DNA of 64,000 bases. Origin: a bacterium (lineage in GTDB: Bacteria; Electryoneota; Electryoneia; Electryoneales; Electryoneaceae). The DNA is taken from positions 4,192,001 through 4,256,000 of the forward strand of contig OY769902.1 in NCBI GenBank assembly GCA_963669175.1, read 5' to 3'. Shown here in pieces: positions 15,224 to 41,748 of this stretch. Both the position numbers and the translations under genes were made by a program. Each line of letters begins with the position of its first letter. Position 1 is the stretch's first letter. Under the pieces are notes generated by a model. The model saw only the letters and a program-made list of their open reading frames with translations. It did no database searches and was not told the DNA's origin.

Positions 15224-15327
15224 TGATTGCACCTCCTGATTGCACCTCCTGATTGCACTCTTTGATTGCACCTCCTGATTGCACCTCCTGATTGTACTCT
15301 TTGATTGTACTCTTTGATTGCACTCTT
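15224..15327. repeat. 13-bp tandem array (8 units) at the left end of composite element A
   Basis: Units TGATTG(C/T)AC(CTCC/TCTT) at 15224, 15237, 15250, 15263, 15276, 15289, 15302 and 15315. Confidence 0.92.
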
Positions 15328-15962
15328 TCGAAAGTATATATTTATTTGTTTTAGCAGGCTTTAGCCTGCTCCTCTTAGCCCCCGGCTTTAGCCCTGTCTC
15401 TTGCTCACATCTTCGTGTTTCTGCCACCCCAGAGGGGGTGGTATATTTTTTCGTAGGGTTGACGCTGTCTGTTTAGCGTCTACCCTACGAAAAAGATCAA
15501 ACCTTATCTCAACCCTGGAAGGGTTGCATAACGTATAATTTACACCCAATTGGTTTGTATAGAATATAAAATGCGTTATTTCCTGTATTTATTGAACGTA
15601 CTAATATGAATCGCGTATTATGCAACCCTTCCAGGGTTGATTATTCGTTAGAATACCTGACATAGTGTACAGGCCAAACAGACGGCCTGTACACTATGCT
15701 AAAATAGGGAATCCCGCCGGGATTCTAAAAATGCTATGTCCACAACTCTTTTACTGATACAGCTTTCAGAAGATGTGGGTAAGAGACAGGGCTTTAGCCG
15801 GGGGAACAAGGACAACAACGACTCGAGCGCCCTTCAGGGTGCTTTCCTGATTCGTATGGATTCTATGACGTTAAAGCACGCTAAAGCGCGCTCATAGCTT
15901 TTGTTATATCCATCCACCCGGCTAAAGCCGGGTGCTAAGAGGAGCCTGCTGAAGCAGGCTAA
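15315..15962 (+). mobile_element. REP/REPIN-like mirrored multi-hairpin element, copy A (interrupted by a MITE)
   Basis: Hairpins AGCAGGCTTTAGCCTGCT, CCCGGCTTTAGCC|GGG, GAGCGCCCTTCAGGGTGCT, AGCACGCTAAAGCGCGCT, CACCCGGCTAAAGCCGGGTG, AGCCTGCTGAAGCAGGCT; near-identical reverse-complement copy at 41104-41748. Confidence 0.8.
15394..15789. mobile_element. 396-bp non-autonomous MITE with IS50/Tn5-like (IS4 family) ends, copy 1
   Basis: Left end CTGTCTCTTGCTCACATCTTC, right end GAAGATGTGGGTAAGAGACAG (19/21 IR); flanking direct repeat GGCTTTAGCC at 15384-15393 and 15790-15799; no long ORF. Confidence 0.88.
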
Positions 15963-16113
15963 AAACTTTTGAATCAGTAAAACTTTTGAATCAGCAAAAA
16001 CTTATGAATCAGCAAATACTTATGAATCAGTAAAAACTTTCGAATCAGCAAAAACTTTTGAATCAGCAAATACTATCGAATCAGCAAAAACCTTCGAATC
16101 AGTAAAAACCTTC
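15961..16113. repeat. 18-bp tandem array (8 units) at the right end of composite element A
   Basis: Units beginning GAATCAG(C/T)AAA at 15971, 15988, 16006, 16024, 16042, 16060, 16078 and 16096; followed by a 14-bp AGAAACAGTATCTC duplication at 16133-16166. Confidence 0.9.
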
Positions 16114-16275
16114 GAGACCCCATATTTTTTCAAGAAACAGTATCTCAGAAACAGTATCTCAGAAACCCTTTGTTCCTGTCACGAAAATCCAACCATCTCC
16201 AACTCAACCCTTGTCCCTTCCGGCTGAACATGCTACGTTTCGCAAGGTCCGAAATCCTTGTGAGGAATAGCCCGC

Positions 16276-19200
16276 ATGAAACGATTCGCGTTCATCCTGT
16301 TGCTTGCTTATTGTATTCCTTTATTGGCGGCGGATACGAAGTATCCAGTGACGTATTATCGTGCCGTTGATTCGCTACGCACCAATCTTGTCGCGGATTC
16401 CCTGTACCGTTACGCTGACTATGATCAGCAGATGAAACACTGGGAACGTGCGGACACGCTGGCGCAAAAAGGCCTGGCAACGCTCGATACGCTGCAGAAC
16501 CTGCTGGACTGGACTTACCGTGGCAGCGATGAAGCGATTGCTGCGGCCATGTTGGGCATGCGTGTCGCGGTAATAACCCGTCCCATGGGGAAACCGGAAC
16601 TGAACAGAATCGAGTTTCACAATCCTGCGACCGATGAATTACTGATTGTTTACGATCCGGCGCCCTGGCTGGTTGATGAGACCATCGGCTTTGTACAAAC
16701 TGATAAAAACACGACCATCTTTGAAACCTGGCCCAAGGTTGACGGCTACCGCGTTACTACGTTTTCCCATTCACGTCTGGATGGCGGTTTCCAGGTAATT
16801 CGTGAAGGTCGCACCATCATCCGTGCCCTTCCGGACAAACGTGACCGCATCTGGCTACTCGAATATGACGCTGACCAGACTGTACATCTGGTACTATATA
16901 ACGCAGACTCAAAACGCTTCGCCCAGGTCAAGACATTCCATGAATACAGCCCGTTAGCTTTCAAACCGCCATCACGCGCTTATAATGACGGCTGGGTGTT
17001 GATTGACATGGATGAGCTGTATTTCCTCGACCCGCTTGCCGGACGTTGTGACAAGCTGATGAATCTGCCCTTTATCGCTGTGAGCGAAGATCAGTTTTCC
17101 GGCTGGACCTTCAGCGCCATGCGTGACAACGATTTGCACCTGCTGAAGTTCAAACCGCGTCCCCCGGTGTATAAACATGTCATCTTGCCAGACGCTATCC
17201 CTGCGGAACGAAACGGCCTTTCCGCCAAGGTCAATGACTTCGGCGCCTACCTTGCCAATGTGCAGGATGACAGTCTTTCGCTGTACAACATTCTGGGCGA
17301 TGAAGCTTCGCTGGAATCTCGTCATTCCGCGTTACGACGTCATGGTTTCATGCTGCTTGACGGGCTTGAGTGGTTCGGACACCTGCTGCTCCATTACGGA
17401 CGTAATGGTCTCCGGGTTTACAACGGCAGCAACCTGATTTTCGCGGATAGTGCCAACGGGGATCAGGTTGGTGTCATTGAACCGTTGGAAGGAATGCTGT
17501 GGGCGCATCGAGCGCCGGATTTCCTGTACTGTGTGGACTTGAACACAAAAGACACGCTGTGGCATTCCTCGCTGAAGCTCTCCCCCGCACGCCACATGGC
17601 CCGGCTGAATGATGGCTGGCTGGCGCTGAATAACAACTATCTCGATTACCGGGTGGTTGATTTCGCCAACGGAAACGAACTGTTACGTCAACCTGTACCC
17701 GGCCCGATGGTGTTTTCCTATCTGCCACTGGATGAAAGTGTGCTTTTGAATGGTCCGGGTGGCGCTTTCCTGCGGTATTTGCCGATCAGACGTGATCTTC
17801 GCGCTGACCTTGTGGAACTGCGCGCACGTGGGCTCAATGTCCTCGGTGACACCACGCAGGCGCTGGACCTCGCTACTCAAGCCTTCATCCTGGGTGAACC
17901 GTTGAAGGAATGGGCTCACAACGGTCTGCTGAAACGCTACAAAGGGCAACGCCTGACTCGTGAAAGTCTGCAATTTGTGGGTCAGGCAGCAATCCGTACC
18001 GGTGATCCCGGCTGGACAAAAATTCTGAACCGTGGCGGGGCGGAGTTCTTCTCTCCTGCGGTTTTGAGTGGGTTCAATCATTTGATCCCCACGGGCAAAG
18101 GTGTGATGGCCATGCCTTCCCTGACGCCGAAAGATTACCTGACCGGCGAATATGGCTGGCATGCTTCGTTTGTCCTTGGTCCGAAATTTGACAGCTATGG
18201 CGAATTACAGCAGCGTTTCCTGACCAGCTATGCCATCCAGATTCCTGATGGATATATCCTGTTCTCTTTCGAACGTCGCAGCCAGAACCGTCCGGTTTAT
18301 GATGGTCTGGCGTGGTTGTTGAACTCATCCGGCTCAATCAAACCACTGGGCAAGCTGGACATTGCCGCCTTGTCCGAACAATTCCCCCCCAGCAGTGACA
18401 TGGTCGCCGGGGGAATTGTGCCCACATTGTCCAATCCCGATGGGGACAAGATCCTGGTCAACTTCTGGCGTTTCGGCTTCAGTGAAGATGTCCATCCCCT
18501 GTTCACAGCGTGCATCGACCTGACCGGCGGCGGGAAGAACTGGACGGATACGACCTCCGTATCACCGGTGTTTGCCGGAGGACAATGGTACGCTCATGAG
18601 ATCAGCGGTGAAGAAATTGTGTACGTAGCACCGCATGGTCAGGCAGCCCGGGCGGACATGAGAACCGGCGATATTATCCGTTCGGTCAACGGATACCCTG
18701 TCATGGCCTGTCAGCGATACAGCGACCTGATCGCAACTCTACCGCGCGGCGCAACCTACACTGTTCAGGTTGAATCACCCAAGGGTGAGCAATACACCGC
18801 AGAGTTGGTGAAGAGTTATACCGGCTTTGAGTCGCTGCCAGAACAGACACTGGTTGAATTAAACCAGAAAAATGCTACCCATTCCAATCCGATGAAACTG
18901 CCTGCCGGATACCTGTTGATGGCAGCCAACGAAGATGGCCACCTGGTGTACAAGTACCAGGACAGCCTGCTGTTCGTTGATCCGGTAGCGCAGTCCATGC
19001 AACGAGTGACTCTACCGGGTATCTCAGACACGGACCTCCTGACAAGTCCGGGCATGTATGATATCGCTGTGTTCGGGAATCCATCAGCGGGACGCTTCCT
19101 TGGTATCAACCTCGCTGCCAGCGCTGTGGATTCACAACGAGTTGTCTGGCGGAAAACATTTGGACCGTTGCGTAATCTACCCCCGCTAAATGAAGCGGCA

Positions 19201-19476
19201 GATCGTTTCCCGGTATTGCTGAACGATGGTACCCTCCTGCTGATCAATCCTGTGGACGGCGCAGAAGTAAACCGTACTCAGCTTCCCTTCGCGGCATGGA
19301 TCGACCGGACAGCATTGCTTGGAAATACGTTCTACGGATCCATCGAAGGTCGCATCCTCGGCTGGAACATCGCATCCGGTTCCGCCGCTTCTCCGGTCCT
19401 GTTCCTGCTGATTGGCGCTGGTGGTATGCTGGCGCTTTGCCTGGTGGGGATGGTGCTGATGCGGAAACGGGGGTAA
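16276..19476 (+). CDS. Large exported protein with PQQ-like beta-propeller segments, a PDZ domain and a C-terminal membrane anchor
   Basis: Signal peptide MKRFAFILLLAYCIPLLA; PDZ-like VAPHGQAARADMRTGDIIRSVNG; LYCVDLNTKDTLW and LLLINPVDGAEV blade-like motifs; C-terminal TM followed by RKRG. Confidence 0.7.
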   Translation: MKRFAFILLLAYCIPLLAADTKYPVTYYRAVDSLRTNLVADSLYRYADYDQQMKHWERADTLAQKGLATLDTLQNLLDWTYRGSDEAIAAAMLGMRVAVITRPMGKPELNRIEFHNPATDELLIVYDPAPWLVDETIGFVQTDKNTTIFETWPKVDGYRVTTFSHSRLDGGFQVIREGRTIIRALPDKRDRIWLLEYDADQTVHLVLYNADSKRFAQVKTFHEYSPLAFKPPSRAYNDGWVLIDMDELYFLDPLAGRCDKLMNLPFIAVSEDQFSGWTFSAMRDNDLHLLKFKPRPPVYKHVILPDAIPAERNGLSAKVNDFGAYLANVQDDSLSLYNILGDEASLESRHSALRRHGFMLLDGLEWFGHLLLHYGRNGLRVYNGSNLIFADSANGDQVGVIEPLEGMLWAHRAPDFLYCVDLNTKDTLWHSSLKLSPARHMARLNDGWLALNNNYLDYRVVDFANGNELLRQPVPGPMVFSYLPLDESVLLNGPGGAFLRYLPIRRDLRADLVELRARGLNVLGDTTQALDLATQAFILGEPLKEWAHNGLLKRYKGQRLTRESLQFVGQAAIRTGDPGWTKILNRGGAEFFSPAVLSGFNHLIPTGKGVMAMPSLTPKDYLTGEYGWHASFVLGPKFDSYGELQQRFLTSYAIQIPDGYILFSFERRSQNRPVYDGLAWLLNSSGSIKPLGKLDIAALSEQFPPSSDMVAGGIVPTLSNPDGDKILVNFWRFGFSEDVHPLFTACIDLTGGGKNWTDTTSVSPVFAGGQWYAHEISGEEIVYVAPHGQAARADMRTGDIIRSVNGYPVMACQRYSDLIATLPRGATYTVQVESPKGEQYTAELVKSYTGFESLPEQTLVELNQKNATHSNPMKLPAGYLLMAANEDGHLVYKYQDSLLFVDPVAQSMQRVTLPGISDTDLLTSPGMYDIAVFGNPSAGRFLGINLAASAVDSQRVVWRKTFGPLRNLPPLNEAADRFPVLLNDGTLLLINPVDGAEVNRTQLPFAAWIDRTALLGNTFYGSIEGRILGWNIASGSAASPVLFLLIGAGGMLALCLVGMVLMRKRG

Positions 19477-19537
19477 GAAATAGTCTGACTTCAATAAGTC
19501 GGATATGACGCATAACTTTGTTATGAATGAATCCCAT

Positions 19538-19754
19538 CCCCCCGAAGGGGTATAACAAGAATAGCGCGGATCGTCAGCCCCGGGAAAGAAATGTTGCCCT
19601 CCTTTATCGATCCTGAAGGGATCGCACATTTTTCCTAATAATAGTTGTAATCACTGTTATAGATGTGTGTACCCTTCGGGGACAAGAAAATGTCGTATCA
19701 CATTTCCCCGGCACTTACGTACCGCGCTATTCAAATGGTTCACCTGCGGTGAAC
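19538..19754. repeat. REPIN-like mirrored triple-hairpin element (different sequence family)
   Basis: GAATAGCGCGG (19559-19569) / CCGCGCTATTC (19722-19732) inverted pair; hairpins CCCCCGAAGGGG, CGATCCTGAAGGGATCG, CCCTTCGGGG, GTTCACCTGCGGTGAAC; AT-rich centre. Confidence 0.65.
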
Positions 19755-19920
19755 TTCAGTCGTTATCTGGCTAATATTGTAAGACATTTACAATAGAATC
19801 ATGGATATTCATTGATCCGGAACCGCTCAAGGGATCCTATTATAAATCTGCAAATCGCCTCAAACACATTGTCTTTTCAGGGTGTATCCCCTCTTGCCGC
19901 TTTGAGATCGACGGTTTACA

Positions 19921-22900
19921 TTGTGTAAACTTCGTTGCAGAACCGGAGGGGCGGTGGATTCGGAAACTCGCAGTACGCCTGAAAAGGATATAATCATACA
20001 GGGAAAGAGCAAACCGGTACGGAATATCCTCCTCCCTGCGATTCCGTTTCTGCTGGCGTTTCAGGTAGCAGTGTTCATCGTCCTTGCCAACCTGGATAAG
20101 CTGGTAACTCTTTCACCGGACACATATCCGCATATCCTGCATCCTGTTTCCAGCGATTTTCCCTGTGACACTCTGCTAAGTGACGTCCGTTTTCTCGAAG
20201 ACTCGAGCTACAGTTATATCAGCGTATACCGTGAATTCAGTACCGAATGCCTGGTGCTTGACCCGTTTTTTGACGTCCAAAGTCATCTGGACCTGGGGCA
20301 ACAGGTACCCTGGAAAAGTGTATCCAGCGTGGACAGTGATGGTGACGGCCTCGATGAACTGGTATACGCGAAAATCTTCACCGAATCCTCGCAAGCTGAT
20401 CCGTTTTCCAGCAATATCGACAGTGTGCAGTTATGCGCGATGGATGCAACCGGTAAACTGGTCATCTTTGACCGTCTACGACCGGAACGTATCGAAGGAT
20501 TCCCACGCAACACGAACAAGTCCTTCCGTAGTCTCAACCTGTTCTGGCCGACTCAACCGGATGGGATTCACCCTGCTCAATCAGCTGACTATTTCATCCT
20601 TTCCTCAGGTGATGATGCCTCGGAAGAACCCTTTCGTCAACTACGAATCTATCGCAAAGGGACACCCCCTCGACTGGCCGCTGTGGTTCGTGTGCCCATG
20701 ACTGTACGTTCAGGAAAATGGCAGCGTCTCCCGGATGGACGCAGCCTCTTCACCTGTACTGGGATACCGCTCGCGTTTGGAACCACTGTCCCGGTAAAAT
20801 TTCTTTCACCGGACGGCGTATCTCACGAGACAATCCTGTCCGATGCCAACAGCTACACAATGCAGATCGATGATCATGGCAATATGCTCTGGGCGCGTGA
20901 GCTCGGCGTTGCTATCGGGGAAAGCAGGCTGTTGCCGCAGGCTGACGATGTCAACACGATACAAATTGCCTGGCAGACACTGGAACCACGCTCTTCTCCT
21001 GCGCCTGTATCATGTCTGTATACGATGGACTGGCTGACCGGTGTGGTGCGCGATTCCTTGAATTCCGATCATAGCCTGTTGCCTGTTGCCGGATGGACCT
21101 TGTCAGCTCCGCCGGTCTCATTATACCAGTCACAAACGGAAGTAATCATTCAACCGGAATACGCTTCGGGAAAGGAACCGGTATCACTGCCAATCTCCGT
21201 CCAACCGCCTGTACTACTTTCGGGTACGGATCGGGATCACCCGCTGTTCATTCTGAACGGGACTGACAAGCGGATTCGTTTGGTGAGCACAGACGGTATT
21301 GAGCAGGCATGCCAGGATGGTGGACGGGCATTCACGCCTCTCCCCTTCGCTCATCGCATTCAACCAACCAATGATATTCCGGTGGTTTCTGACAGCCGCA
21401 TTCAGCTTCATCGCCTTTCTCCAAATCCATCCTCGCTGTGGATGTGGAAACGGTATCAGTGGGCAATTCTACTGCTAATCCCGACTCCGTTGATCCTGCT
21501 GGGGGTGTATTTCTTTATCCGCTATCGTGCAGAGCGAAGCAAGGTCAAGAAGCAGAAGGAAGTTTATTACCAGACACTCGAACTCAGGGTAAAACTGCGC
21601 ACCCATGAGCTGGAAGACGCCAACGAGAAGCTCTACGCTGAAATCGATGCCCGGAAGATCGCCGAAGATACGGTCCTGGCCCAGCATGAGCACCTGGAAT
21701 CCATCTTTCACGGTGTCCAGTATGGCCTGCTTACCGTAGATCGTGACATGAAGGTGAATAAGGTGAACCAGGCGTTTTCCGAGATGCATGGCAAGCCGGT
21801 TTCATCTCTGGAAAACCTGGTTCTTACCGATATCCTGACCGGGCATGACAAGGCATTGTCCCACCTGGTTAAAAATGCCTTCAACGGGAAACAGGCGCAG
21901 GTAACTGATTTTGAACTGGAAGTCGATCTCCCTGCCGGCGATAATCGTCTGCTCCAGGTTCACCCGACAGTACTCAAAGACAGTAAGGGTGCGGTGTCTG
22001 AGTTGCTGCTGACCATGCGTGATGTCACTCATTTGCATCGTTTGCAGCAGATCGTCGAAGAGCGTTATCAGTATCGAAATATCATCGGACATTCCTCACG
22101 GATGCAGGAAGTATTTCAACTGCTGGAAGACCTTTCCAATTCACTCTCAACTGTGCTGATCACCGGGGACAGCGGCACAGGGAAAGAACTGGTCGCCTCC
22201 GCCCTGCATTACGGCTCGAAGCGATCTGAAGGCCCCTTTGTGAAAGTGAATTGTTCGGCGCTGTCAGAAACACTACTGGAAAGCGAATTGTTCGGGCATA
22301 TCAAGGGCGCTTTTACCGGCGCGACTCGTGACAAGGCAGGGCTTTTCCAGGTGGCGCGCGGTGGCACCATCTTCCTCGATGAAATAGGCGACATCTCGCC
22401 CAAGATGCAGGTCAGCCTGTTGCGCGTATTGCAGGAAGGTGAATTTCAACGGGTTGGCGATACCAAGACGTTGAAAACAGATGCCCGCATCATTGCAGCC
22501 ACCAACCGTAACCTGAAAAAGAAAATTCAGGACGAAACCTTCCGGGAAGATTTGTACTACCGTCTGAATGTCGTAGCGATTGAACTTCCACCCCTGCGTG
22601 AACGACGTGAAGATATCCCTCTGCTGGTTGAGCATTATATGCTTCATTTCAACCGTCAGATGCAGCGCAGTATCAAGGGCATAGACGATGACGCGCTGGA
22701 ATTGCTGATGCAACACGACTGGCCGGGAAACATACGTGAGCTGCAAAATATTCTCGAAAGAGCGTATATCGTATGCCGTAGTGATATGCTGCGTATCGCT
22801 CATTTCCCGGCGGAACTGAGGGCGGAACCTCTCCTGCGCGGTACAACAGGCCATGATATCGGACGTAGAGCAGCGGGGCCGGATCCGGACGAACTGGACG

Positions 22901-23034: not shown

Positions 23035-23045
23035 AAGCCAAATCC

Positions 23046-23100
23046 GGTTGACAACCTGTAAACTTACCCGCTTGTTCCTCTTCTTCAGTTGACAGTTCAA
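23046..23100 (+). promoter_or_regulatory. Candidate enhancer (UAS) sites for the sigma-54 activator
   Basis: GGTTG-A-CAACC palindrome at 23046-23056 and a second GTTGACAGTTCAA at about 23088-23100, upstream of the -24/-12 box. Confidence 0.4.
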
Positions 23101-23160
23101 GGCGATCCATTCTATCCGTAAGATTTTATTTTTCTAACACATACTCGCATCATAGAGGAC

Positions 23161-23176
23161 TGGCCTACAGCTTGCT
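23161..23176 (+). promoter_or_regulatory. Sigma-54 (-24/-12) promoter
   Basis: TGGCCTACAGCTTGCT has exact GG-N10-GC spacing (consensus TGGCAC-N5-TTGC) and ends about 70 bp upstream of ATG 23248. Confidence 0.75.
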
Positions 23177-23247
23177 TTTTCCCTTCCAAAGACCAAATCC
23201 ATTTTGCGTACTCGCATATGGTAACTGTTTCAAGGAAGGAGGCAACC

Positions 23248-24237: not shown

Positions 24238-24264
24238 GTGGTACTGGTAGGATGTATTAGAAAG

Positions 24265-24435
24265 ACTCGCTTGGCCCGACTGCTTGCTGTCGGGAATTAC
24301 GATAGGCATGTCAAGTTTCTCCGGCCAAACATGGCCGGGCTACTCGCTTGGCCCGACTGCTTGCAGTCGGAAATCACGATTGGCATGTCACGTTTCCCCG
24401 GCCAAGCATGGCCGGGCTACTCGCTTGGTCGGGAA
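24265..24435. repeat. BIME-like tandem of 77-bp units containing GTAG-type REPs
   Basis: Units at 24265 and 24342, partial at 24419; each has a CCGAC..GTCGG hairpin and, on the minus strand, GTAGCCCGGCCATG(T/C)TTGGCCGG. Confidence 0.8.
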
Positions 24436-24465
24436 TCCATACCGCCTAAAAGTGCACGATGCGAA

Positions 24466-25339: not shown

Positions 25340-25342
25340 GGT

Positions 25343-26050: not shown

Positions 26051-27353
26051 CACTGCTGTCCGGTTAATTGAGCATTGTTCTTGATTGCTGTTTTCGTTTT
26101 TGTTTTTCGATATCGCTTGTTCTTTGAAAGTCTTGCCACGCTTTGGCTACAGGGATACAGATCAGCAGATGTGTGCTGATAAATACCAAGAGTTGATGAG
26201 TAGTGATTGCCTCGTCGGCGTTCTTTTGCAACACTCTTAGCAGGAGAAAGACGATCATGGCAACCCAGATTTGCGACATCACTGCATTTTCGGATGTCCC
26301 CAGAAAAGACTTGATTTTCAGGTTCTGTTTCACCCATTTGAAGAACAGTTCAATCTGCCAGCGTTGCTTGTAGAGCTGCGCAATGGTCAACGCGTCTATT
26401 TCCAACAAGTTTGTCAGAAACCACAATTCCTTTTTTGTTTCCGGATCGGTGAAGTGTACCAGGCGCAAGGGATCAGGATAGTGGTCTGCCGGGGTTCCGT
26501 CAAAATGACCAATCCAGTCACCACGGACACCTGTTCCGGCTTCCACCTTTCGTTTTTCGGTCCATTCAAAGCCGACGTTGCTTTTCATGCGTGTGACGAA
26601 AAAGGCCTGGTTGCGATTGATCCTGGCAAACCAGGCGCTGTCGAAGTAGCCACGGTCAACCAGATAGGTTGTGCCTGACGTAATGGGCATGGTTCGCGCC
26701 GCCCCGATATCGCTGACCTTGCCGTCGGTGATGACAATGTCTTGTGGAATAAGCCCGTCATGATCCAGTAGGGTGTGCAGTTTCAGAGCACCTTTTGTTG
26801 TGCGGTATTTTGCCCAGGGCAACCGTTCCAGGCATACCGGAATCAGCGTGCTGTCAAGCGAAAGAAGTTTACCGGGAACGGGAAAATCATGCTTGGAAAA
26901 CCTGTCACAGAAAAGGGCGAATAATGCCTGAAACAGTTCGTAGTAAAATCGCCAGTTAATCCGCTTGTTCGCTTCTGCCAGGGTCGACTTCTTTACATTG
27001 ACCAAGGGGTCCATTGAGAACAGGGATGCCGTTGCATGCTGAATATCGCGTGTCGACTTCAATCCCGCCAACTGTGCGAACATCAGAACCGCAAAATGGG
27101 TGGATGCCGTAAACACAGAGGCATATTTATCAACATGATACTTCGTGGCAAGCTTGTCAAAGAGCTCGTTGGGTACAAGCTTTTGTATCTGCATCAATAC
27201 GGTTGTAGATTGAGCCATGACTTGCATCCTCCGTTGATGAGAATGTGTGTGCAAACTCAATCTTACCAACGGTACCTTGTGATGCAAGTCTTTATTATTA
27301 TACAATCTCCGGGATAGTTACACGAAATCGTGATAACCTACCGGACAGCAGTG
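26051..27353 (-). mobile_element. Complete IS4-family insertion sequence (1303 bp)
   Basis: Terminal IR CACTGCTGTCCGGT / ACCGGACAGCAGTG; 9-bp TSD GTTCTGATT at 26042-26050 and 27354-27362. Confidence 0.93.
26064..27218 (-). CDS. IS4 family transposase (DUF4372 + DDE)
   Basis: LMFAQLAG..STRDI, KSTLAEAN, LDST, VDRGY, YKQRWQIELFFKWVKQNL (YREK motif). Confidence 0.95.
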   Translation of the reverse strand: MAQSTTVLMQIQKLVPNELFDKLATKYHVDKYASVFTASTHFAVLMFAQLAGLKSTRDIQHATASLFSMDPLVNVKKSTLAEANKRINWRFYYELFQALFALFCDRFSKHDFPVPGKLLSLDSTLIPVCLERLPWAKYRTTKGALKLHTLLDHDGLIPQDIVITDGKVSDIGAARTMPITSGTTYLVDRGYFDSAWFARINRNQAFFVTRMKSNVGFEWTEKRKVEAGTGVRGDWIGHFDGTPADHYPDPLRLVHFTDPETKKELWFLTNLLEIDALTIAQLYKQRWQIELFFKWVKQNLKIKSFLGTSENAVMSQIWVAMIVFLLLRVLQKNADEAITTHQLLVFISTHLLICIPVAKAWQDFQRTSDIEKQKRKQQSRTMLN

Positions 27354-32734: not shown

Positions 32735-32780
32735 CCGAAATCCTCAGTTAAACCTGAACTGCTTTTCGAGAATATGCGCT

Positions 32781-33491: not shown

Positions 33492-33699
33492 AGTGCAAGC
33501 TACGCAGGAAAGTGAAACCCGGCAAGGGAATTACTCTGTCCGGTTTAACCAGCCCGGATATTTCATGTGTACGAAGTATTCATTCCCACGAAGAGCCTGT
33601 ACAAACTGCCTCTTGACAAAATAAGCTGAAGTAATTCTAGCATATTGATATTATTAGCAATAGAATGATTTTCTTCGTTACACTCGTAAAATAATCGAG

Positions 33700-35184: not shown

Positions 35185-35187
35185 GGC

Positions 35188-35841
35188 TTATCGCAGGTCA
35201 AAGACCTGGACTCCTTCCGGTATATCTAACACGAAACGATCCGCTGGGATCGTGGGATTTAGCTGTACATCAAGGATGATGAACGTGGTACGATTGCCGG
35301 AATCATCCGTCCATTCCATACGTCGGGTAATATAGTCCTCAGCATTGACCCAGACCTTCACTTCACGAACGCCCAGTCCGGGTTGTTTCGGTTCCAGCTT
35401 CATCATGTAAGCAAGCTGACCGTCAATAACAGATTCAATGACATCACCGGCATCAAACTGCTTGGGATATTCAAACAGGAAATCCTTGGGGAGCACTCCC
35501 TGCGCCTTGTCCAGCGGCTCGATGATAACCTGTTGATTGGCGACGCTGTACCGCCACAGTGTCTTGCCGTCTGTCACCATCATCTGAATCGGTGTTTCGA
35601 ATCTGAATTTTTTATCCCCTGCGATTTCCATGGTTCCGTCCGTGGATTCCACTTCCCCTGCCAGCGCCCACTGGAACTCCTTGCGGAAGGTACAGGAGAA
35701 CGACTCCATGTCATCATACGCCTTCTGAATATTGCGAATCAGCCGACCGCTCGAAGGCGGATCAGCCGCAAGGGCAAATCCGGCCAACAGCAATCCAAGA
35801 ACCGCTGCGGACAGAATATGTGGAATCGATTTAATTCTCAT
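35188..35841 (-). CDS. lolA: Outer-membrane lipoprotein carrier LolA
   Basis: Signal peptide; KFRFET, VTDGKTLWRYS..QQVII, C-terminal F.LDIPEGVQVFD; directly downstream of ftsK (conserved synteny). Confidence 0.88.
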   Translation of the reverse strand: MRIKSIPHILSAAVLGLLLAGFALAADPPSSGRLIRNIQKAYDDMESFSCTFRKEFQWALAGEVESTDGTMEIAGDKKFRFETPIQMMVTDGKTLWRYSVANQQVIIEPLDKAQGVLPKDFLFEYPKQFDAGDVIESVIDGQLAYMMKLEPKQPGLGVREVKVWVNAEDYITRRMEWTDDSGNRTTFIILDVQLNPTIPADRFVLDIPEGVQVFDLR

Positions 35842-38251
35842 GATTGAAAAATCCTTCCGCTTCTTCCGGACCCATCAATACTTCACGCGCTTTTGAGCCT
35901 TCAAACGGTCCGACAATACCGGCCTGTTCCAGTTGATCCAGGATACGTCCCGCACGGCTGTATCCAACCTTCAGCCTGCGTTGAATCAGGGAAACCGATC
36001 CCTGCTGATGACGAACCACCAGCTTGACCGCTTCTTCAAACAGCACATCTCTTGTGCCATCATCTATCGCGCCCGGACCGCCGCCCACATCAGAATCAGC
36101 AGGCGCCTGCAGCTTGCAGGTTTTCACAAACGCAGGCTGATTGGCAACATGGGCGATCAGTTTGTGTACTTCTTCTGTCGAGATGAACGCACCATGAATA
36201 CGAACCGGTTGCGGCGAGGCATTGGTCATGATCAGCGCATCACCTTTACCCAGCAACGCCTCTGCGCCGGGACGGTCCAGGATGGTTCGGCTGTCTATCT
36301 TTGACGCAACCATAAACGCCAGCCGTGCCGGGAAGTTCGCCTTGATCACACCGGTGATGACATCGACTGACGGACGTTGTGTCGCTACGACAAGGTGAAT
36401 GCCAACCGCACGCGCCATCTGGGCCAGCCGCGCAATCGGCTCTTCCACTTCCTTCGCCGCTGTCAGCATCAGATCAGCCAATTCATCGACAATCACAACG
36501 ATATACGGCATCTTCACCGCTTCGTTGCCATCCTCATCCGGCTTGATCTTCCCTTTCTCTACGAACTCGTTAAATTCGCCAATGTTCCTGACACCCACTT
36601 CTGCCAGGTAAGTATAACGTCGTTCCATTTCGGTTACGATGCTTTGTAACAGCGCAACAGCGTTCTTTGGTTCGGTTGCGATAACTTCGTCCGCATCTTC
36701 CACAAAGAGCAGGTGATGCTTGCGAAGTTCGGCATAGGCTGAAAGCTCAAGCTTCTTCGGGTCAACCATCGCCACCAGCACATCTTCCGGCTGGTTACGC
36801 AGCAGCAGGCTGGCGATGATCGTGTTGATGCAGACTGATTTACCGGAACCTGTCGTTCCTGCAATCAGCATATGCGGCATTTTCGCAAGATCGATACAGT
36901 AAATATCACCCTGCGCCGTGCGTCCCAACGCCATAAGCAGGTGCTTATCCGATCCACGGAATGCTTTTGAATCCACGATTTCACGCAGAAAGACAGTTCG
37001 TGAGTGATGATTTGGCACTTCAATCCCCACCGCCCCGGCCCCCGGGATCGGCGCAAGGATGCGGACTGCCGGGGCCGCCAACGCCATGGCAAGATCATCA
37101 CCAAGCGATGCGATACGCCCCACTTTCACACCAGGACCGGGCTTCAGGTCGTAGCGAGTAATGACAGGACCGGGATGAATCGCAATTACTTTGGCCACAA
37201 CACCGAACTGTTCCAGCGTCTGCTCCAGCAGGGTGGCCTGCTGACGCAACGCCTGTTCATCGACCTCGGCAGAAGCAGCCGTATATTCCGGTTCATCCAG
37301 CAATTCTACAGGTGGATACAGGTATTCCGGGCGCTCACGTTTCGCTTCGGCATTCTCCGCTGCAGCAAGAGCTGCCGGTGTTGTTGCCGCCTCCTGCTTC
37401 GCTTCATTCATCTTATCCATTACAATTTCAGCATCAGATGGCGTATCCCGTTCATCCGGTTCATGCTCGAGCGTTATGGAATCAAACTTCTCTTCCGGCT
37501 CCTCATAGTCGTAATCATCCTCTTCGTCATCATCGCCAATGGAGATGGGAGGCGCTTCATATTCTTCTTCATCATCATCATCATCATCATCATCATCCGG
37601 CGCGCGCTTGGGATTCCGCTTCTTCAGTTCCGGCTTCAGCTTCTTTCCAGCCTTGCCGATACCCCGCCCGACCTTCGCGCCTACGGCTCCACTTCGCTCC
37701 ATCACTTTTGCCCATCGGATACCGAAGAATACAGTCAGGTAAATCAGGATCGCCGCACTCAGAACCAGGATGGAGCCGGTCTTGCCGAATCCGGACAGGA
37801 TCAACTTCGCCAGCTCAGTTCCGATAAATCCGGACTGGACATAGGGATCAATATCCTCAGGTCCGGTAACGGCAAACACGCCCCAGAAGGTGGAAACAAG
37901 CAATGCGGCAAAGATGAGCGGAACACCTGTCTGCCAGGTCCACCTGAAGCCCTTGGCACGGATCAACTCAATTGCAAACACCGCCATCAGTAACGGTATG
38001 GTCAGGCTGACAATCCTACCGAATGTCGCCAGGATCAGCCCGCAGGCTAAATTCGCTCCAATAACGCCCAACCAGTTATGCGGAGGGTCCTGCATTCCCA
38101 GGAACGGATCATCAGGATGAAACGTGAGAACAGCAAGAACCTGTAATGCGGCCATTGCGAGCAGAGCAATCCCGATCACGTCACGCACACTACTGCGACG
38201 AGTTTTCGGAGCTGCCTTTTTCTTTTTCTTGCTTGCTATCTTTTTAGCCAT
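35831..38251 (-). CDS. ftsK: DNA translocase FtsK
   Basis: N-terminal TM domain, acidic linker, HMLIAGTTGSGKS, VIVDELADLM, ATQRPSVDVITG, gamma domain SLIQRRLKVGYSRAGRI. Confidence 0.97.
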   Translation of the reverse strand: MAKKIASKKKKKAAPKTRRSSVRDVIGIALLAMAALQVLAVLTFHPDDPFLGMQDPPHNWLGVIGANLACGLILATFGRIVSLTIPLLMAVFAIELIRAKGFRWTWQTGVPLIFAALLVSTFWGVFAVTGPEDIDPYVQSGFIGTELAKLILSGFGKTGSILVLSAAILIYLTVFFGIRWAKVMERSGAVGAKVGRGIGKAGKKLKPELKKRNPKRAPDDDDDDDDDEEEYEAPPISIGDDDEEDDYDYEEPEEKFDSITLEHEPDERDTPSDAEIVMDKMNEAKQEAATTPAALAAAENAEAKRERPEYLYPPVELLDEPEYTAASAEVDEQALRQQATLLEQTLEQFGVVAKVIAIHPGPVITRYDLKPGPGVKVGRIASLGDDLAMALAAPAVRILAPIPGAGAVGIEVPNHHSRTVFLREIVDSKAFRGSDKHLLMALGRTAQGDIYCIDLAKMPHMLIAGTTGSGKSVCINTIIASLLLRNQPEDVLVAMVDPKKLELSAYAELRKHHLLFVEDADEVIATEPKNAVALLQSIVTEMERRYTYLAEVGVRNIGEFNEFVEKGKIKPDEDGNEAVKMPYIVVIVDELADLMLTAAKEVEEPIARLAQMARAVGIHLVVATQRPSVDVITGVIKANFPARLAFMVASKIDSRTILDRPGAEALLGKGDALIMTNASPQPVRIHGAFISTEEVHKLIAHVANQPAFVKTCKLQAPADSDVGGGPGAIDDGTRDVLFEEAVKLVVRHQQGSVSLIQRRLKVGYSRAGRILDQLEQAGIVGPFEGSKAREVLMGPEEAEGFFNHEN

Positions 38252-38456
38252 AACCTTATCCTTGTGCAACCGGAAAGTACCTACACGCCCTGTCGGGCGC
38301 AAGGGGAAGTTCATCGGTTGCCCGAAACCAGTGAAACAGACGACTGTCTCGTGTAAAACAAACCCTGTCTAATCCGTTAAAACGGTTCATTGGGGGTTCT
38401 CCAAAGGGAATTTGATCCTTATATTCCGGCAACTTGAGGGGTATAATCCATAGGTC

Positions 38457-39035
38457 ATGTTACGCCAGATTCCTAACATATTAACTGCGCTACGGTTTCC
38501 CCTGACTGCGGTCTTCCTGTACGGTTTCCTGCAACCGGAAGGGGAAATAGTATGGCAGATTATCGGCATTCTGAGTTTTATGCTCAGTGCGTTGACCGAT
38601 CTGCTTGACGGTATCATCGCACGAAAAATGAACTCAGTCACAAAGATCGGCGCGTTCCTTGATCCCCTGGCGGATAAAGTGCAGGTCTTATCCGGTTTTG
38701 CCGCATTGTTGCTGAAGCCGGATATCGGCTGGGGCCAGTGGAAAATCCTCATCATTATCTCTGTCTGTGTCATTGCCTTGCGTGAAATTGTCATCACCTG
38801 GTGGCGTTCTTACAAGTTTGCCAAGAGTAAACCTCCACGCACTTCGTTCCTGGCAAAAGCCAAGACCATGACGCAAATGATCACACTGATCGTTGCCATC
38901 GTTTTGCTCGGCATCGTGGAATTGCTTCATGTAAACGAAACCTTATACCTTGCGATACTGGTACTCATCGGAGGCGGTATTGTAGCGAGTGCAGTTTTAG
39001 CTGCGATGAGCGCGTATACCTATCTGAAAGACTGA
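38457..39035 (+). CDS. pgsA: CDP-alcohol phosphatidyltransferase (PgsA-like)
   Basis: IPNILTALR, TDLLDGIIARK...GAFLDPLADK, RE motif, AKAKT..Q. Confidence 0.88.
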   Translation: MLRQIPNILTALRFPLTAVFLYGFLQPEGEIVWQIIGILSFMLSALTDLLDGIIARKMNSVTKIGAFLDPLADKVQVLSGFAALLLKPDIGWGQWKILIIISVCVIALREIVITWWRSYKFAKSKPPRTSFLAKAKTMTQMITLIVAIVLLGIVELLHVNETLYLAILVLIGGGIVASAVLAAMSAYTYLKD

Positions 39036-39051
39036 CCGGAAGCGAAGCATC

Positions 39052-39519
39052 ATGCGTACTTCATTGATTCTCATCCTGTTTTCAGTCCTGTTCATCTTGA
39101 GCTGTGGAACCGAACGCAAGAAAGAAGCGACTGTTCGGGACTCCACGGCCAGCGCACAAAAAGACACCCTGATGCTCGACAATGTCCCCCCGGGAGCAGA
39201 ACCTGTCTGGGACGAGGGCATCACATTTGATGAAAACACCATGAAGGCCACGGTTGCCATTCGCAGCGCCGAACTGCACAACCTGTTTCTACGTACTGAG
39301 AAGCGATACCCTGGGTTGCACGGGAATGTCACCGCGCATTTTGTCGTAAATCCGGATGGCACGGTTGAAGATGTGACCATAAAGGATGCCAGGTGGAATG
39401 AACCTGCCGGAGACATTGTCACTGACAGCCTGGTTCTGCTGGTTGAAGAATGGACATTCCCGCCGGGAGCCGCAAAATCCATTGGCATTACCCAACCCTG
39501 GAATTTCATCCGGGAATAG
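39052..39519 (+). CDS. Lipoprotein with TonB-C/AgmX-like domain
   Basis: ILSC lipobox; PGLHGNVTAHFVVNPDGTV...WTFPP. Confidence 0.7.
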   Translation: MRTSLILILFSVLFILSCGTERKKEATVRDSTASAQKDTLMLDNVPPGAEPVWDEGITFDENTMKATVAIRSAELHNLFLRTEKRYPGLHGNVTAHFVVNPDGTVEDVTIKDARWNEPAGDIVTDSLVLLVEEWTFPPGAAKSIGITQPWNFIRE

Positions 39520-39569
39520 TAGTAGCAGAAGACTGTGCCGCGTTAAACTATAGTTGTTCCGCTATGTAA

Positions 39570-39781
39570 ACAGTCAAGGGTGTAAAGAGCCTTTGTATCG
39601 TCCCATGTGCCGTTCTGCTATTCGTGCTCGTGGCACAAGTTTTTTGTTCGCACGGAACAGCGGCGCCCTAAACTCGAATCGTTGTCAAGCAACAGAATAA
39701 CTACCAGGGTCGCGTGTTCCCAATGGCATCGGACGATTCAATCACAATCTATGCTTTACCTACCTGCCAGCAGTGCTGGGG
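39570..39781 (-). ncRNA. Candidate bridge RNA/seekRNA of the IS110 element
   Basis: About 210-nt non-coding 3' end with stems (e.g. TGTGCC/GGCACA) and short matches to both element junctions; position as expected for IS1111-type elements. Confidence 0.5.
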
Positions 39782-40843
39782 TTATACGCAGGCAGGATTG
39801 TAGTCTTGTTCTTTGACCAGCATGGCCCACAGTATCACGGCTAGTTTTCGTGCCATGGCGACGATCGCCACTTTCCGTGTTTTCCCGGCATGGATCGCAT
39901 CGTATTTCTTCTTTGCATACGGATCTTTTTGCACCCAACGCCACGCAGCTTCGACCAATAGTTTTCGTAGATGGGACGGTCCCCAGTGGGTAATGTGTCC
40001 CATATGGCGTGTGTTGGCGCTTGACCATTCACACGGCGTCAAGCCAAGATGTGCGCCGACTTGCTTACCGGATGCGAAGCGTTCGGGACGATACATCTCG
40101 GTCACGAAGGCGTTCACGGTCAGCTCGCCCACGCCTTTCACCTGGCACAGGCGCTGGGTACGGTCCCGATACGTTGCGGACGCATTCATCGCCTTGATCG
40201 CTTTGGTGATCACCTTGAGTTGCTGTTCAATGGCCTCCAGCTCATCGAGAGCAACATCAATGGCTATCCGTGTCGCAGCCAGACAATCACACGTTCGCAA
40301 CCAGCGCCGGTATTCCTTTGTCCAATAGCGTTGCGGCGGAAACGGTGACTGTAAACCGTGAAACAATAGCAGACTCTTGATTCGGTTTTTGACCCGAACG
40401 CGATCATTCATCACCTGGTCACGGGTGCGAGACAACTGACGATCCGCCTCTTCCTGTTCTGTGGGGACATGTACCCAGGTACGAGGTGGTGTCCAGAACA
40501 TGTGGGCCAAGGTAAGGGCATCCAGATGATCGGTCTTCTGCTGCTTCGCTTGCGCCCCTTTGGGAACTTGGCTGGGCGGCGCGATCTGGCAGTCAACACC
40601 TTGGCCGATCAGGTAACGACAGAGGCCAAAGCCGGTGAGGCCCGCTTCATAACACGCCCACATGCGGCAGTTGGGAAAACGGGCAAAGAAGCGTTCCCAA
40701 GCGGCTGAGTCATGCTTGATCCGATTCTCAAAGAGCACTTCACCAGTCTGGGTGTCGAGCACAACGGCGAAAGAAGTCTGCGAATCAACATCCAGACCTA
40801 TAGACAATGAACGGTCCGCTGCAATAACTTGGTTCTTCGACAT
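39782..40843 (-). CDS. IS110 family recombinase/transposase
   Basis: DEDD RuvC-like motifs IGLDVD, CYEAG, KTDHLDA; GVGELT; GLTPCEWSSA (Ser); LVEAAW; VAMARKLA. Confidence 0.95.
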   Translation of the reverse strand: MSKNQVIAADRSLSIGLDVDSQTSFAVVLDTQTGEVLFENRIKHDSAAWERFFARFPNCRMWACYEAGLTGFGLCRYLIGQGVDCQIAPPSQVPKGAQAKQQKTDHLDALTLAHMFWTPPRTWVHVPTEQEEADRQLSRTRDQVMNDRVRVKNRIKSLLLFHGLQSPFPPQRYWTKEYRRWLRTCDCLAATRIAIDVALDELEAIEQQLKVITKAIKAMNASATYRDRTQRLCQVKGVGELTVNAFVTEMYRPERFASGKQVGAHLGLTPCEWSSANTRHMGHITHWGPSHLRKLLVEAAWRWVQKDPYAKKKYDAIHAGKTRKVAIVAMARKLAVILWAMLVKEQDYNPACV

Positions 40844-40938
40844 GGCGCTTCTCCTTGTGTTGGAAAAATGGAATACTGCTAAGATAGCAGTTCCAACACG
40901 ACTTGATGCGCCTGTCGTTTAACATAGGAACTCGAAAG

Positions 40939-41100
40939 CTATTGCTGATTCGATAGCTATTGCTGATTCGATGTCTATTGCTGATTCGATGTCTATTGCT
41001 GATTCGATAGCTATTGCTGATTCGATGTCTATTGCTGATTCGATGTCTATTGCTGATTCGATGTCTATTGCTGATTCGATAGCTATTGCTGATTCGATAG
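40939..41100. repeat. 18-bp tandem array (9 units) at the end of composite element B
   Basis: CTATTGCTGATTCGAT(AG/GT) x9; its reverse complement shares the GAATCAGCAA core with the array at 15961-16113. Confidence 0.95.
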
Positions 41101-41103
41101 CCA

Positions 41104-41748
41104 TTAGCCTGCTTCAGCAGGCTCCTCTTAGCACCCGGCTTTAGCCGGGTGGATGGATATAACAAAAGCTATGAGCGCGCTTTAGCGTGCTTTAACGTCA
41201 TAGAATCCATACGAATCAGGAAAGCACCCTGAAGGGCGCTCGAACGGTTGTTTTCCTTGTTCCCCCGGCTAAAGCCCTGTCTCTTGCTCACATCTTCGTG
41301 TTTCTGCCACCCCGGAGGGGGTGGTATATTTTAGCGTAGGGTTGACGCTGTCTGTTTAGCGTCTACCCTACGAAAAAGATCAAACCTTATCTCAACCCTG
41401 GAAGGGTTGCATAACGTATAATTTACACCCAATTGGTTTGTATAGAATATAAAATGCGTTATTTCCTGTATTTATTGAACGTACTAATATGAATCGCGTA
41501 TTATGCAACCCTTCCAGGGTTGATTATTCGTTAGAATACCTGACATAGTGTACAGGCCAAACAGACGGCCTGTACACTATGCTAAAATAGGGAATCCCGC
41601 CGGGATTCTAAAAATGCTATGTCCACAACTCTTTTACTGATACAGCTTTCAGAAGATGTGGGAAAGAGACAGGGCTAAAGCCGGGGTCTAAGAGGAGCAG
41701 GCTAAAGCCTGCTAACACAAGTAAATATATTTTCGAAAGAGTGCAATC
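41104..41748 (-). mobile_element. REP/REPIN-like multi-hairpin element, copy B (reverse complement of copy A outside the MITE)
   Basis: 41104-41276 is the reverse complement of about 15790-15962, and 41673-41748 of about 15316-15393, with a few differences. Confidence 0.82.
41277..41672. mobile_element. 396-bp IS50/Tn5-like MITE, copy 2
   Basis: Same + strand orientation as 15394-15789, about 4 substitutions by eye; TSD GGCTAAAGCC at 41267-41276 and 41673-41682. Confidence 0.88.

Follow-up and report, generated by a model that had tools for sequence, protein, structure and literature searches.

Evidence that two oppositely oriented MITE copies arose by independent Tn5-type insertions into the same hairpin of a REPIN-like repeat

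A 396-bp cassette is present twice in a 64,000-nucleotide stretch of an Electryoneaceae genome (contig OY769902.1, positions 4,192,001 to 4,256,000; hereafter the window), with the two copies oppositely oriented relative to the repeats that host them. With a probability of roughly 85%, we conclude that the cassette is a MITE of the IS50/Tn5 type, mobilised in trans and blind to orientation, and that a hot-spot hairpin was hit twice independently, giving copies A and B. The pattern of cassette copies and sites lies far beyond chance expectation.

Two cassettes in the same hairpin of reverse-complementary hosts

The layout described for 15315..41748 by an earlier sequence-only reading was borne out to the base: two 396-bp cassettes on the + strand, each with a 10-bp duplication and each in the equivalent hairpin of its host repeat, the two hosts being reverse-complementary. 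Cassette A spans 15394-15789 and cassette B 41277-41672; on the + strand both start with CTGTCTCTTGCTCACATCT, and an alignment of the two shows 4 differences over 396 positions. The duplication is GGCTTTAGCC around cassette A (15384-15393 and 15790-15799) and GGCTAAAGCC around cassette B (41267-41276 and 41673-41682). Positions 455-648 of host A align at 96.9% to 4233297-4233104 on the minus strand, so the hosts are reverse complements of each other. Mapped onto a 241-bp reference host, the two cassettes occupy one and the same inner hairpin, at about position 73, in opposite orientations. Neither host has an insertion in its second inner hairpin (15915-15934 in A, 41132-41151 in B), again as the sequence-only reading had it. 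With the cassette and one duplication copy removed, host A aligns over 241 bp, at 95.0% identity, to an empty host elsewhere in this genome (G000), at 3017210-3017450.

Extended host A begins on the + strand with an outer left terminal region (GTCGTTCCTGAAAGTC..., 15136..15208; read by eye, with approximate boundaries) that recurs in conserved form beside other host copies; with the outer right terminus it makes up a rough inverted repeat. A 13-bp tandem array of about seven or more TGATTGCAC-type units (15209..15336, repeat family D2) abuts the left side of the host. The left arm (15315..15393, + strand) contains the outer hairpin AGCAGGCTTTAGCCTGCT at 15353-15370, then the left half of the inner hairpin; its final 10 bases are the left target duplication. 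MITE copy A, which follows, has imperfect terminal inverted repeats of 19-22 bp of the IS50-subgroup type and an interior of paired long hairpins that resembles a REPIN-like cargo; an ORF search of this copy found none of 80 aa or more. The remainder of host A (15790..15962, + strand) holds the right duplication, the central hairpins, the empty inner hairpin and an outer hairpin. It is followed by an 18-bp tandem array (GAATCAGCAAAAACTTTT-type, about 8 units, family D1) and the outer right terminus of the extended host (15961..16117).

At locus B, the counterpart of this last array, with about 9 units of 18 bp (40932..41103), lies between an IS110-family element and host B. The right-arm side of host B (41104..41276, minus strand) comprises the outer hairpin, the empty inner hairpin and the central hairpins and is closed by the duplication at 41267-41276. 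Beyond MITE copy B (+ strand), the second duplication, the left arm of host B and its outer left terminal region (...GGAACGAC) occupy 41673..41837 on the minus strand. Rfam searches of both loci and of the whole window gave nothing above threshold except one tRNA; sub-threshold microRNA-type matches on the cassette hairpins were dismissed as chance.

Forty-four copies and the origin of the flip

The 5.45-Mb genome contains 44 cassette copies, 42 full-length and 2 interrupted. The cassette has the features of a MITE: it is short and non-coding, has terminal inverted repeats and a target duplication, and occurs in multiple copies with matching empty sites. Perfect 10-bp duplications flank 36 of the 44 copies and, since the duplicated bases at both extremes differ among sites, the length of the duplication is genuinely 10 bp. 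About 29 copies are 98-100% identical; of 29 copies assigned to subfamily 1, 13 equal the consensus.

Identical flanking 10-mers are missing at the other eight copies, which counts against the preferred reading, as does the lack of a cognate transposase in the genome. The simpler reading is that the imperfect duplications may reflect recombination between copies, as PMC1525189 proposes for ISRm22. We also considered whether it might be a special signal when the two flanking 10-mers are reverse complements, but no more than 3 of the 8 imperfect cases show this, and the loop types number only four.

Both loci have a close composite match elsewhere in the genome. Locus A matches 2747448-2748119 (97.0% over 674 bp) and locus B matches 4482581-4483344 (94.5% over 764 bp, covering 41086-41844 of the window). 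Within the A pair the cassettes differ at 2 of 396 positions and the host flanks at 13 of 241; within the B pair the counts are 4 of 396 and 34 of 253. Per base, the host flanks are thus 10 to 13 times more different than the cassettes, which argues for independent, recent insertions into a hot spot and not for inversion or mis-assembly. Against this reading, gene conversion among cassettes could make them look younger than their hosts.

These pairs bear on the idea that host and cassette spread as one composite, by REPIN transposition or segmental duplication, with the orientation difference arising once and the loci being non-independent. Similarity does stop at the extended host borders in both pairs, and the right-end substitution 390T>A occurs both in copy B and in the copy at 4482758. 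Set against this are the excess of differences in the host flanks and the empty host at 3017210-3017450, which resembles host A (95.0%) no less than the filled one does. Were joint spread true for those pairs, the difference in orientation between A and B would still be left unexplained, and we consider this account improbable. Some composite spread may have occurred, as copies B and 4482758 have in common the derived substitution, the host position and the orientation.

The other possibility raised by the sequence-only reading was that the cassette flips in place through its terminal inverted repeats, A and B being the two states of a switch. A filled site does form an extended 36-nt inverted repeat (89%), and the DEDD gene adjoining host B is of the IS110 family, which PMC1525189 describes as including an invertase. 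That gene, however, lies in a 1387-bp IS that is present in 12 copies, all of them at least 99.1% identical to the one in the window, and no recombinase gene adjoins locus A. The 44 copies lie at different sites with 10-bp duplications, and both orientations occur at many separate loci in different, diverged hosts. Between A and B the entire element is reversed, including the asymmetric differences between its ends. The switch gained no support, and we judge it very improbable.

A flip produced by mis-assembly of near-identical repeats is barely credible. The roughly 29 almost identical copies would invite such an error, and the private bases of copy A at 15450-15451 are absent from the locus contigs of two sequencing runs. 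Against it, each locus is distinguished by unique flanks and host variants of its own, the duplications are exact, and both arrangements recur at other loci; a repeat-collapsing assembler would not produce an exact inverted insertion plus matching duplications. The stretch occurs solely in short contigs, both in a marine metagenome and in two sequencing runs of the organism; unitigs end at the repeat borders and no record spans the repeat. A 406-base skip in one run contig is expected from the empty host copies elsewhere in the genome.

Target choice and orientation

Insertions in the host family account for 24 of the 44 copies, 13 at about host position 73, eight at about 203 and three at about 47. 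The remaining 20 lie outside it, so the target preference is not absolute. Genome-wide, GGCTNNAGCC is filled at 19 of 91 sites when flanked by CCC..GGG vs 3 of 43 when flanked by GCA..TGC (Fisher p 0.048). Not every site is independent, as many belong to shared repeat families. At the 18 outside-host sites with perfect duplications, palindromy of the duplication averages 2.5 of 5 pairs (1.23 at random), complementarity of the flanks 2.9 of 6 (1.5 at random) and flank GC 81%; none of 20,000 resampling draws was as high as either observed mean. Orientation is close to even, both relative to the host (13 vs 11 among the 24 host-family copies) and relative to the central dinucleotide (10 vs 8; binomial p 0.81).

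We propose that the cassette belongs to the IS4 family as a non-autonomous element of IS50/Tn5 subgroup type. Its two 19-bp ends would be bound in trans by a Tn5-like transposase, which would then excise it. The two 3' ends would be joined to target strands 10 bp apart, and gap repair would leave the 10-bp duplication; the excision, joining and repair steps are those expected from the family. The preferred target appears to be a palindrome of about GGYTWWARCC between C-rich and G-rich bases. A transposase complex with two-fold symmetry would favour a palindromic target and could not distinguish the two orientations. The inner-hairpin loops of the host (CCC-GGCTNNAGCC-GGG) match this preference almost perfectly, which would make them hot spots. 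Copies A and B would then be separate insertions into the same hairpin of two previously diverged host copies, one per orientation.

That an IS4/IS50-type transposase targets the REP loop and inserted independently both ways, as the sequence-only reading had suggested, is supported by the 44 copies, the 10-bp duplications, the palindromic GC-flanked target, the lack of orientation bias and the diverged hosts. Full-length Tn5-like ISs of relatives, which share ends, duplication length and kind of target, support it further. Strict sequence specificity, also part of that suggestion, does not hold, with 20 of the 44 copies outside the host family.

The target could instead be picked by DNA structure, as an extruded cruciform or a single-strand hairpin, and not by base sequence. 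The 10-bp duplications of the relatives vary (GGTTCCATCC, GGCGCCGTCG, CGACGGAGCG) while CCCGG-type flanking stems recur, flank complementarity is raised outside the host family, and several sites are terminator-like or REP-like stem-loops. Nearly all genomic GGCTWWAGCC sites sit within hairpins, and sequence preference and hairpin structure are therefore inseparable there. However, about half of the 18 outside-host sites are without a stem centred on the duplication. The outer host hairpin, with the same loop and an 8-bp stem, is also filled less often than the inner one (the 3 of 43 vs 19 of 91 above), suggesting that flank sequence matters. Tn5-type transposition chemistry, moreover, requires duplex target DNA. 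Choice by structure alone is in our estimate rather unlikely.

Ends of the MITE and a transposase in relatives

The left end CTGTCTCTTGCTCACATCT and the complement of the right end, CTGTCTCTTACCCACATCT, each match 7 of 7 positions of the IS50-subgroup signature CW------Y---CA-A--W- tabulated in PMC2266710. By the sequence it quoted for the IS50 inside end, the sequence-only reading counted a 17/19 match to the left end. The same table gives direct repeats of 8-9 bp for this subgroup, compared with 10 bp at 36 of the 44 copies here, a difference that tells against the assignment; for the IS4 family as a whole, PMC2266710 gives about 10 bp.

Profile searches with PF02281 and PF14706 detected no Tn5-type transposase in the genome. 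A protein search of the genome with a relative's transposase found none, and the best tblastn match had an E of 0.55, while the control worked. A scan of the genome for ends with up to 4 mismatches returned only MITE ends and four solo ends and no full-length partner. Five IS types of this genome carry DDE_Tnp_1, and their ends are unrelated to those of the MITE. As the transposase is gone from the genome, the MITE would presently be an orphan, and its many identical copies suggest a recent burst.

The IS50-group transposase that the sequence-only reading led us to look for is thus missing here but present in relatives. One of them, G009, from the same family, carries two 1476-bp ISs whose ends agree with those of the MITE in 17 of 19 bases. 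They encode a 463-aa protein that matches Tn5 transposase chains over residues 11-460 (E 1e-88) and has Tnp_DNA_bind and DDE_Tnp_1 domains, with a weak match to Dimer_Tnp_Tn5. Both G009 elements have the 10-bp duplication GGTTCCATCC in a CCCGG/CCGGG hairpin. In a second relative, G003, the IS is found at ...gcacccGGCTTCAGCC, the same host hairpin as cassettes A and B. MITE-like ends were present in all five relatives scanned, and a reversed control pattern gave 0 matches. The partner transposase is inferred only from these relatives, whose ends differ from the MITE's at 2 of 19 positions.

Beyond the relatives, an exact-end scan of public species genomes returned 2 stretches. One is a solo end with a flank identical to a relative's contig (L025 = G015 contig); the other lies inside an ORF and is probably a chance match. 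Metagenome contigs gave 1 stretch, a solo end without a transposase. In a plasmid-collection protein search with the relative's transposase, the best matches were Vibrio IS4-family genes (41%).

REPIN-like features of the host and of the cassette interior

About 51 host loci are found in the genome. Host arms flank single Y1_Tnp (IS200-like) genes at 1503039-1503470 and 5361186-5361653; REP/REPIN-RAYT systems are characterised by inverted palindromic repeats, copies of which lie on both sides of a single-copy Y1 (HUH) transposase gene. Since its arms flank these two IS200/RAYT-like genes, the host, with two inverted three-hairpin arms, may be described as REPIN-like. The cassette interior resembles the arms beside a third IS200/RAYT-like gene, at 2672106-2672561, and the cassette looks like a REPIN carried between Tn5-type ends. 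The three Y1 proteins all pass NF033573 (IS200/IS605; 56-70 bits, cut-off 55), and none passes NF047646 (REP-associated tyrosine transposase), one reaching 21 bits against a cut-off of 80 and the other two being unmatched.

We set aside movement of the cassette by a RAYT, as Y1 transposases are not known to produce terminal inverted repeats together with a 10-bp duplication.

More tentatively, a Tn5-type transposase lineage of this bacterial family, with a 10-bp stagger, might have specialised on REP/REPIN hairpin loops (GC stem, 10 bp, GC stem), perhaps in part recognising structure. Its MITE derivative, carrying a complete REPIN of a second RAYT-type family, would form a three-layer parasitic nest that outlived its transposase. 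We incline to doubt this fuller scenario. If it is true, one palindromic repeat family spreads by DDE transposition into the hairpins of another.

Relation to known systems

IS1397 and ISKpn1, of the IS3 family, are DDE elements whose specific insertion targets are the palindromic units of enterobacterial BIMEs. They are autonomous and differ from this MITE in transposase family and duplication length. PMC1525189 names both and reports REP targeting for IS3, IS110, IS4 (ISRm22), IS256 and IS5 elements. When the sequence-only reading called a connection of a DDE element with REP-type elements unusual, it overstated the case, because the literature already describes IS4, IS3 and IS110 elements that target REPs (PMC1525189), and the system is not new in kind.

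Like IS50/Tn5, the MITE has ends with the subgroup signature and full-length relatives encoding a homologue of the Tn5 transposase. It also shares with Tn5 a palindromic target with G/C at the ends of the duplication, as PMC1525189 reports for Tn5. Unlike IS50/Tn5, the MITE has a 10-bp duplication, no transposase gene in itself or in the genome, an interior of REP-type hairpins and not of a deleted transposase gene, and a strong hot spot in the hairpin loops of a repeat element. According to PMC1525189, all copies of ISRm22 (IS4 family) of Sinorhizobium meliloti lie in REP palindromes, with insertion on the axis of a palindromic consensus, and some have hybrid direct repeats attributed to inter-copy recombination. 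ISRm22 is autonomous with 6-bp repeats (PMC1525189), whereas here a MITE has 10-bp repeats and only 24 of 44 copies in one REP-type family.

This case shows how palindromic repeats become hot spots for Tn5-type insertion and why orientation is random there, and it bears on the growth of bacterial intergenic repeat clusters into nested mosaics. Three features go beyond the published descriptions found. A Tn5-like lineage makes 10-bp duplications, the inside of the MITE resembles a captured REPIN, and a genome now without the transposase shows a recent burst that left at least 29 near-identical copies. For studies of Tn5-type target choice, the hot-spot target and the natural ends of the element could be of use.

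In having two inverted palindromic arms that also flank single IS200-like Y1 genes, the host is like the REPIN-RAYT systems of PMC3116915 and PMC3337134. It differs from them in that each arm has three hairpins (about 90 bp) and not one REP. The Y1 proteins flanked by host arms, in passing the NCBIfam IS200 model and not the REP-associated tyrosine transposase model, are a second difference, and many host copies are edged by locus-specific tandem arrays.

Two cassette copies break the same host hairpin

Both copies of the 396-bp cassette lie on the + strand and start with CTGTCTCTTGCTCACATCT, copy A at 15394-15789 and copy B at 41277-41672 of the window, and they differ at four of 396 aligned positions. 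GGCTTTAGCC stands on either side of A and GGCTAAAGCC on either side of B. In the frame of the surrounding host repeats (15315-15962 and 41104-41748), the two cassettes break one and the same inner hairpin in opposite orientations, near position 73 on a reference host of 241 bp. The second inner hairpin is uninterrupted in both hosts (15915-15934 in A, 41132-41151 in B). The layout given in the sequence-only reading, with same-strand cassettes, 10-bp borders, reverse-complementary hosts and an empty second hairpin, was borne out. Copy A has two private bases, TT, at window 15450-15451 that are absent from the assembly contigs of the two runs that cover the locus; the sole contig at that position reads the family consensus AG. 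The contigs could have dropped a rare variant, or the genome could hold a consensus error.

The cassette is a MITE

The genome is a single contig of 5.45 Mb with 50.1% G+C, and BLAST found 42 full-length cassettes in it: 29 with 98-100% identity to A, one with 92% and 12 with about 89%. Two more are split by other insertions, which brings the total to 44, and there are some fragments besides. Thirteen of the 29 subfamily 1 copies are identical to the consensus. The 10-base flanks are identical in 36 of the 44, and the duplication is truly 10 bp because its first and last bases differ among sites. With the cassette and one 10-mer removed, the host at A aligns over 241 bp, at 95.0% identity, to an empty host elsewhere in the genome. 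The census, the 10-bp duplications and the rebuilt empty host mark the cassette as a non-coding element that has transposed, a MITE.

The flanking 10-mers are unequal in eight copies (genome coordinates, used hereafter outside the window: 271929, 1183775, 1655576, 1750582, 2144036, 2205769, 3926219 and 4781297). Three of these have flanks that are exact or near reverse complements of each other, and two of the three (1183775 and 2144036) have the same odd left flank. Unequal flanks are probably the result of recombination or conversion between copies; hybrid direct repeats are put down to recombination between copies in PMC1525189. Older forms of the cassette, alike in their ends and with other hairpin cargo, are also present (solo end at 2154945, divergent copy at 517742-518137).

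Of the 40 relatives' genomes searched, none has the 396-bp cassette; the only genome from the same genus has one 53-bp fragment of it. Two stretches from public end scans, L025 (1741-1800, a contig of the related genome G015) and L027 (8260-8327, a metagenome contig), have homologous solo ends that carry the terminal sequence of subfamily 2, with no transposase near them. One marine metagenome run has pieces 95-99% like host and cassette.

Insertion favors palindromic targets

The host family holds 24 of the 44 copies, 13 at about position 73, eight at about 203 and three at about 47, all in GGCTNNAGCC loops. There are 201 GGCTNNAGCC sites in the genome versus 84 expected from base composition, and the TT/AA and GA/TC forms are nearly all within host hairpins. 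Sites with CCC and GGG flanks are filled in 19 of 91 cases versus three of 43 for those with GCA and TGC flanks (Fisher p 0.048, the context of filled sites being taken from one flank).

The 20 copies outside the host family are also placed non-randomly. Six or seven occupy the loop of a hairpin that belongs to a second repeat family, adjoining GCGCTATTCAAG, two are in a third repeat and some are in terminator-like stem-loops. Eighteen of the non-host sites have perfect duplications, about half of them with no centered stem. At these 18 the duplication is palindromic at 2.5 of five pairs versus 1.23 for random positions, and the six bases per side are complementary at 2.9 of six versus 1.5, with a flank G+C of 81%. 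None of 20,000 resampling draws attained either observed mean, for target sites that are not fully independent because repeat families are common to them. The symmetrized logo is approximately GGYTWWARCC with a C-rich left and a G-rich right flank. According to PMC1525189, the Tn5 target is palindromic and GC-ended, and REP palindromes are targets of IS3, IS110, IS4 (ISRm22), IS256 and IS5 elements. A second IS type has landed in a hairpin loop in a four-layer nest at 4494563-4496496, where a 1312-bp IS4-family IS sits in loop CCTGGAAGG of one hairpin of a cassette (9-bp duplication by eye), that cassette sits within a host and a 1099-bp repeat adjoins.

Opposite orientations probably reflect independent insertion

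In the host frame, the cassette is + at 13 loci and - at 11, including diverged hosts whose own orientation is uncertain because the arms are inverted repeats. At host position ~73 only, the counts are 5 versus 8, and, where perfect GGCTNNAGCC duplications have an asymmetric central dinucleotide, the counts against it are 10 versus 8 (p 0.81). With counts this near to even, reversal between two hosts is expected about half the time. Compared with its nearest composite (2747448-2748091), A has 2/396 differences in the cassette and 13/241 in the host. For B the values are 4/396 and 34/253 against its nearest composite (4482678-4483326), and 3/396 and 60/249 against 3897865-3898501. As the cassettes are far less diverged than the hosts, the hosts had already diverged when a young, near-uniform cassette population entered them. 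One derived right-end substitution is common to B and the 4482758 copy, for which a cassette sub-lineage inserting twice and some spread of the composite are equally good explanations.

The sequence-only reading had left a choice between sequence-specific insertion by an IS4/IS50-type transposase in both orientations and an invertible segment flipped through its inverted repeats. The latter would also yield opposite orientations at A and B; the 44-copy census, the even orientations and the diverged hosts make it unlikely and favor independent insertions at a preferred, palindromic target, a reading to which we give a probability of about 0.85. Mis-assembly of the two loci, which would make the flip an artifact, is likewise unlikely, the read data on orientation and mis-assembly being at contig level.

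A Tn5-type transposase is found in relatives

The end signature tabulated for the IS50 subgroup in PMC2266710 has seven conserved positions, and both cassette ends fit every one. Direct repeats in that table are 8-9 bp, so the 10 bp of the cassette are beyond the range described there. The genome itself lacks a Tn5-type transposase: the Pfam models Dimer_Tnp_Tn5 and Tnp_DNA_bind had zero matches at E up to 1, and a relative's transposase used as query retrieved nothing, the best tblastn E being 0.55 while control loci scored fully. The DDE_Tnp_1 matches in the genome were rejected as partners, since they belong to IS types whose ends, when read, were different.

Three of 61 genomes (60 relatives and this one) have Tnp_DNA_bind matches, all three from the same family. 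One relative, G009, has two copies of a 1476-bp IS whose ends agree with the left end of cassette subfamily 2 in 17 of 19 bases and which encodes a 463-aa protein alignable with Tn5 transposase chains (residues 11-460, E 1e-88). The 10-bp repeat GGTTCCATCC borders both copies inside a CCCGG/CCGGG palindrome. Another relative, G003, encodes a 54%-identical transposase in an IS with its left end next to ...CTCCTCTTCGCACCCGGCTTCAGCC; this site is the inner hairpin known from the host family here, and a tandem array precedes it there too. Scanning five relatives for the end pattern gave such ends in every one and none with a reversed control pattern, the outside flanks in relatives being mostly of the CCCGG-plus-10 type.

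By analogy with the family, a dimer of a Tn5-like transposase would bind both ends, excise the element and join it to target strands 10 bp apart, repair giving the duplication. Such a symmetric complex would prefer a palindromic, GC-flanked target and be blind to orientation, and the host inner hairpin loops would fit this preference and serve as hot spots. The enzyme would have come from an IS since gone from the chromosome.

Host repeats, cassette cargo and neighboring elements

The host core of about 205-240 bp has two inverted arms with three hairpins each and is found at about 51 loci; host-family arms are also present in three other genera of the bacterial family. Inverted arms flanking a Y1 gene are the arrangement described for REP-associated transposases. 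Host arms flank two short Y1_Tnp genes (1503039-1503470 and 5361186-5361653), so the term REP hairpin, used from sequence alone, was apt. The Y1 proteins passed the NCBIfam IS200/IS605 model and failed that for REP-associated tyrosine transposases, and the RAYT label is therefore one of context only. In one of these autonomous-looking Y1-gene units, a cassette occupies the left inner hairpin. Tandem arrays with locus-specific units of 13-40 bp often border hosts (window 15209-15336, 15961-16117 and 40932-41103). An array is within 120 bp at 16 of 51 host loci versus 0.5 on average (at most 4) over 1000 random placements, and 23 of the 157 arrays in the genome are beside host loci. The pattern recurs at Y1-gene loci and at a relative's host copy.

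Cassette positions 51-138 and 225-336 are mutual inverted repeats. Both resemble hairpin arms upstream of a third Y1 gene (2672106-2672561), at 76% over 88 bp (E 6e-13) and 81% over 113 bp (E 4e-22), respectively, and one of the two arms directly adjoins its start codon. We infer that the cassette is a second-family REPIN enclosed by Tn5-type ends. Long hairpins of its loop type are rare outside cassettes, only four having a perfect stem of at least 9 bp. Two of these belong to REPIN-like elements that stand alone, near 2377500 and 2378200 (2377480-2377720 and 2378130-2378360), and lack Tn5-type ends. Together with the older variants, they suggest that capture took place more than once or that the two have long shared a history. 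No paper listed by our literature searches describes a Tn5-type MITE with REPIN cargo, which does not prove that there is none; a term search of a 2024 review on MITEs of prokaryotes (PMC10969869) found IS4, nested and REPIN all unmentioned.

Beside host B is a 1387-bp IS110-family element (window 39549-40935, - strand) encoding a 353-aa DEDD transposase (39782-40843). It occurs 12 times, with an identity to the window copy of 99.1% or more throughout, and a TCGAG-like pentamer always precedes it. Three copies, including the one beside host B, are at the host outer right terminus or an 18-bp array, and seven adjoin another conserved repeat. A guide RNA could be encoded in its non-coding stretches of about 90 bp upstream and about 230 bp downstream. 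Another IS, of the IS4 family and about 1303 bp long (window 26051-27353, - strand), lies between loci A and B; its ends, CACTGCTGTCCGG, are unrelated to those of the cassette. It encodes a 413-aa protein with DUF4372 and DDE_Tnp_1, and two of its three genomic copies have a 9-bp duplication by eye.
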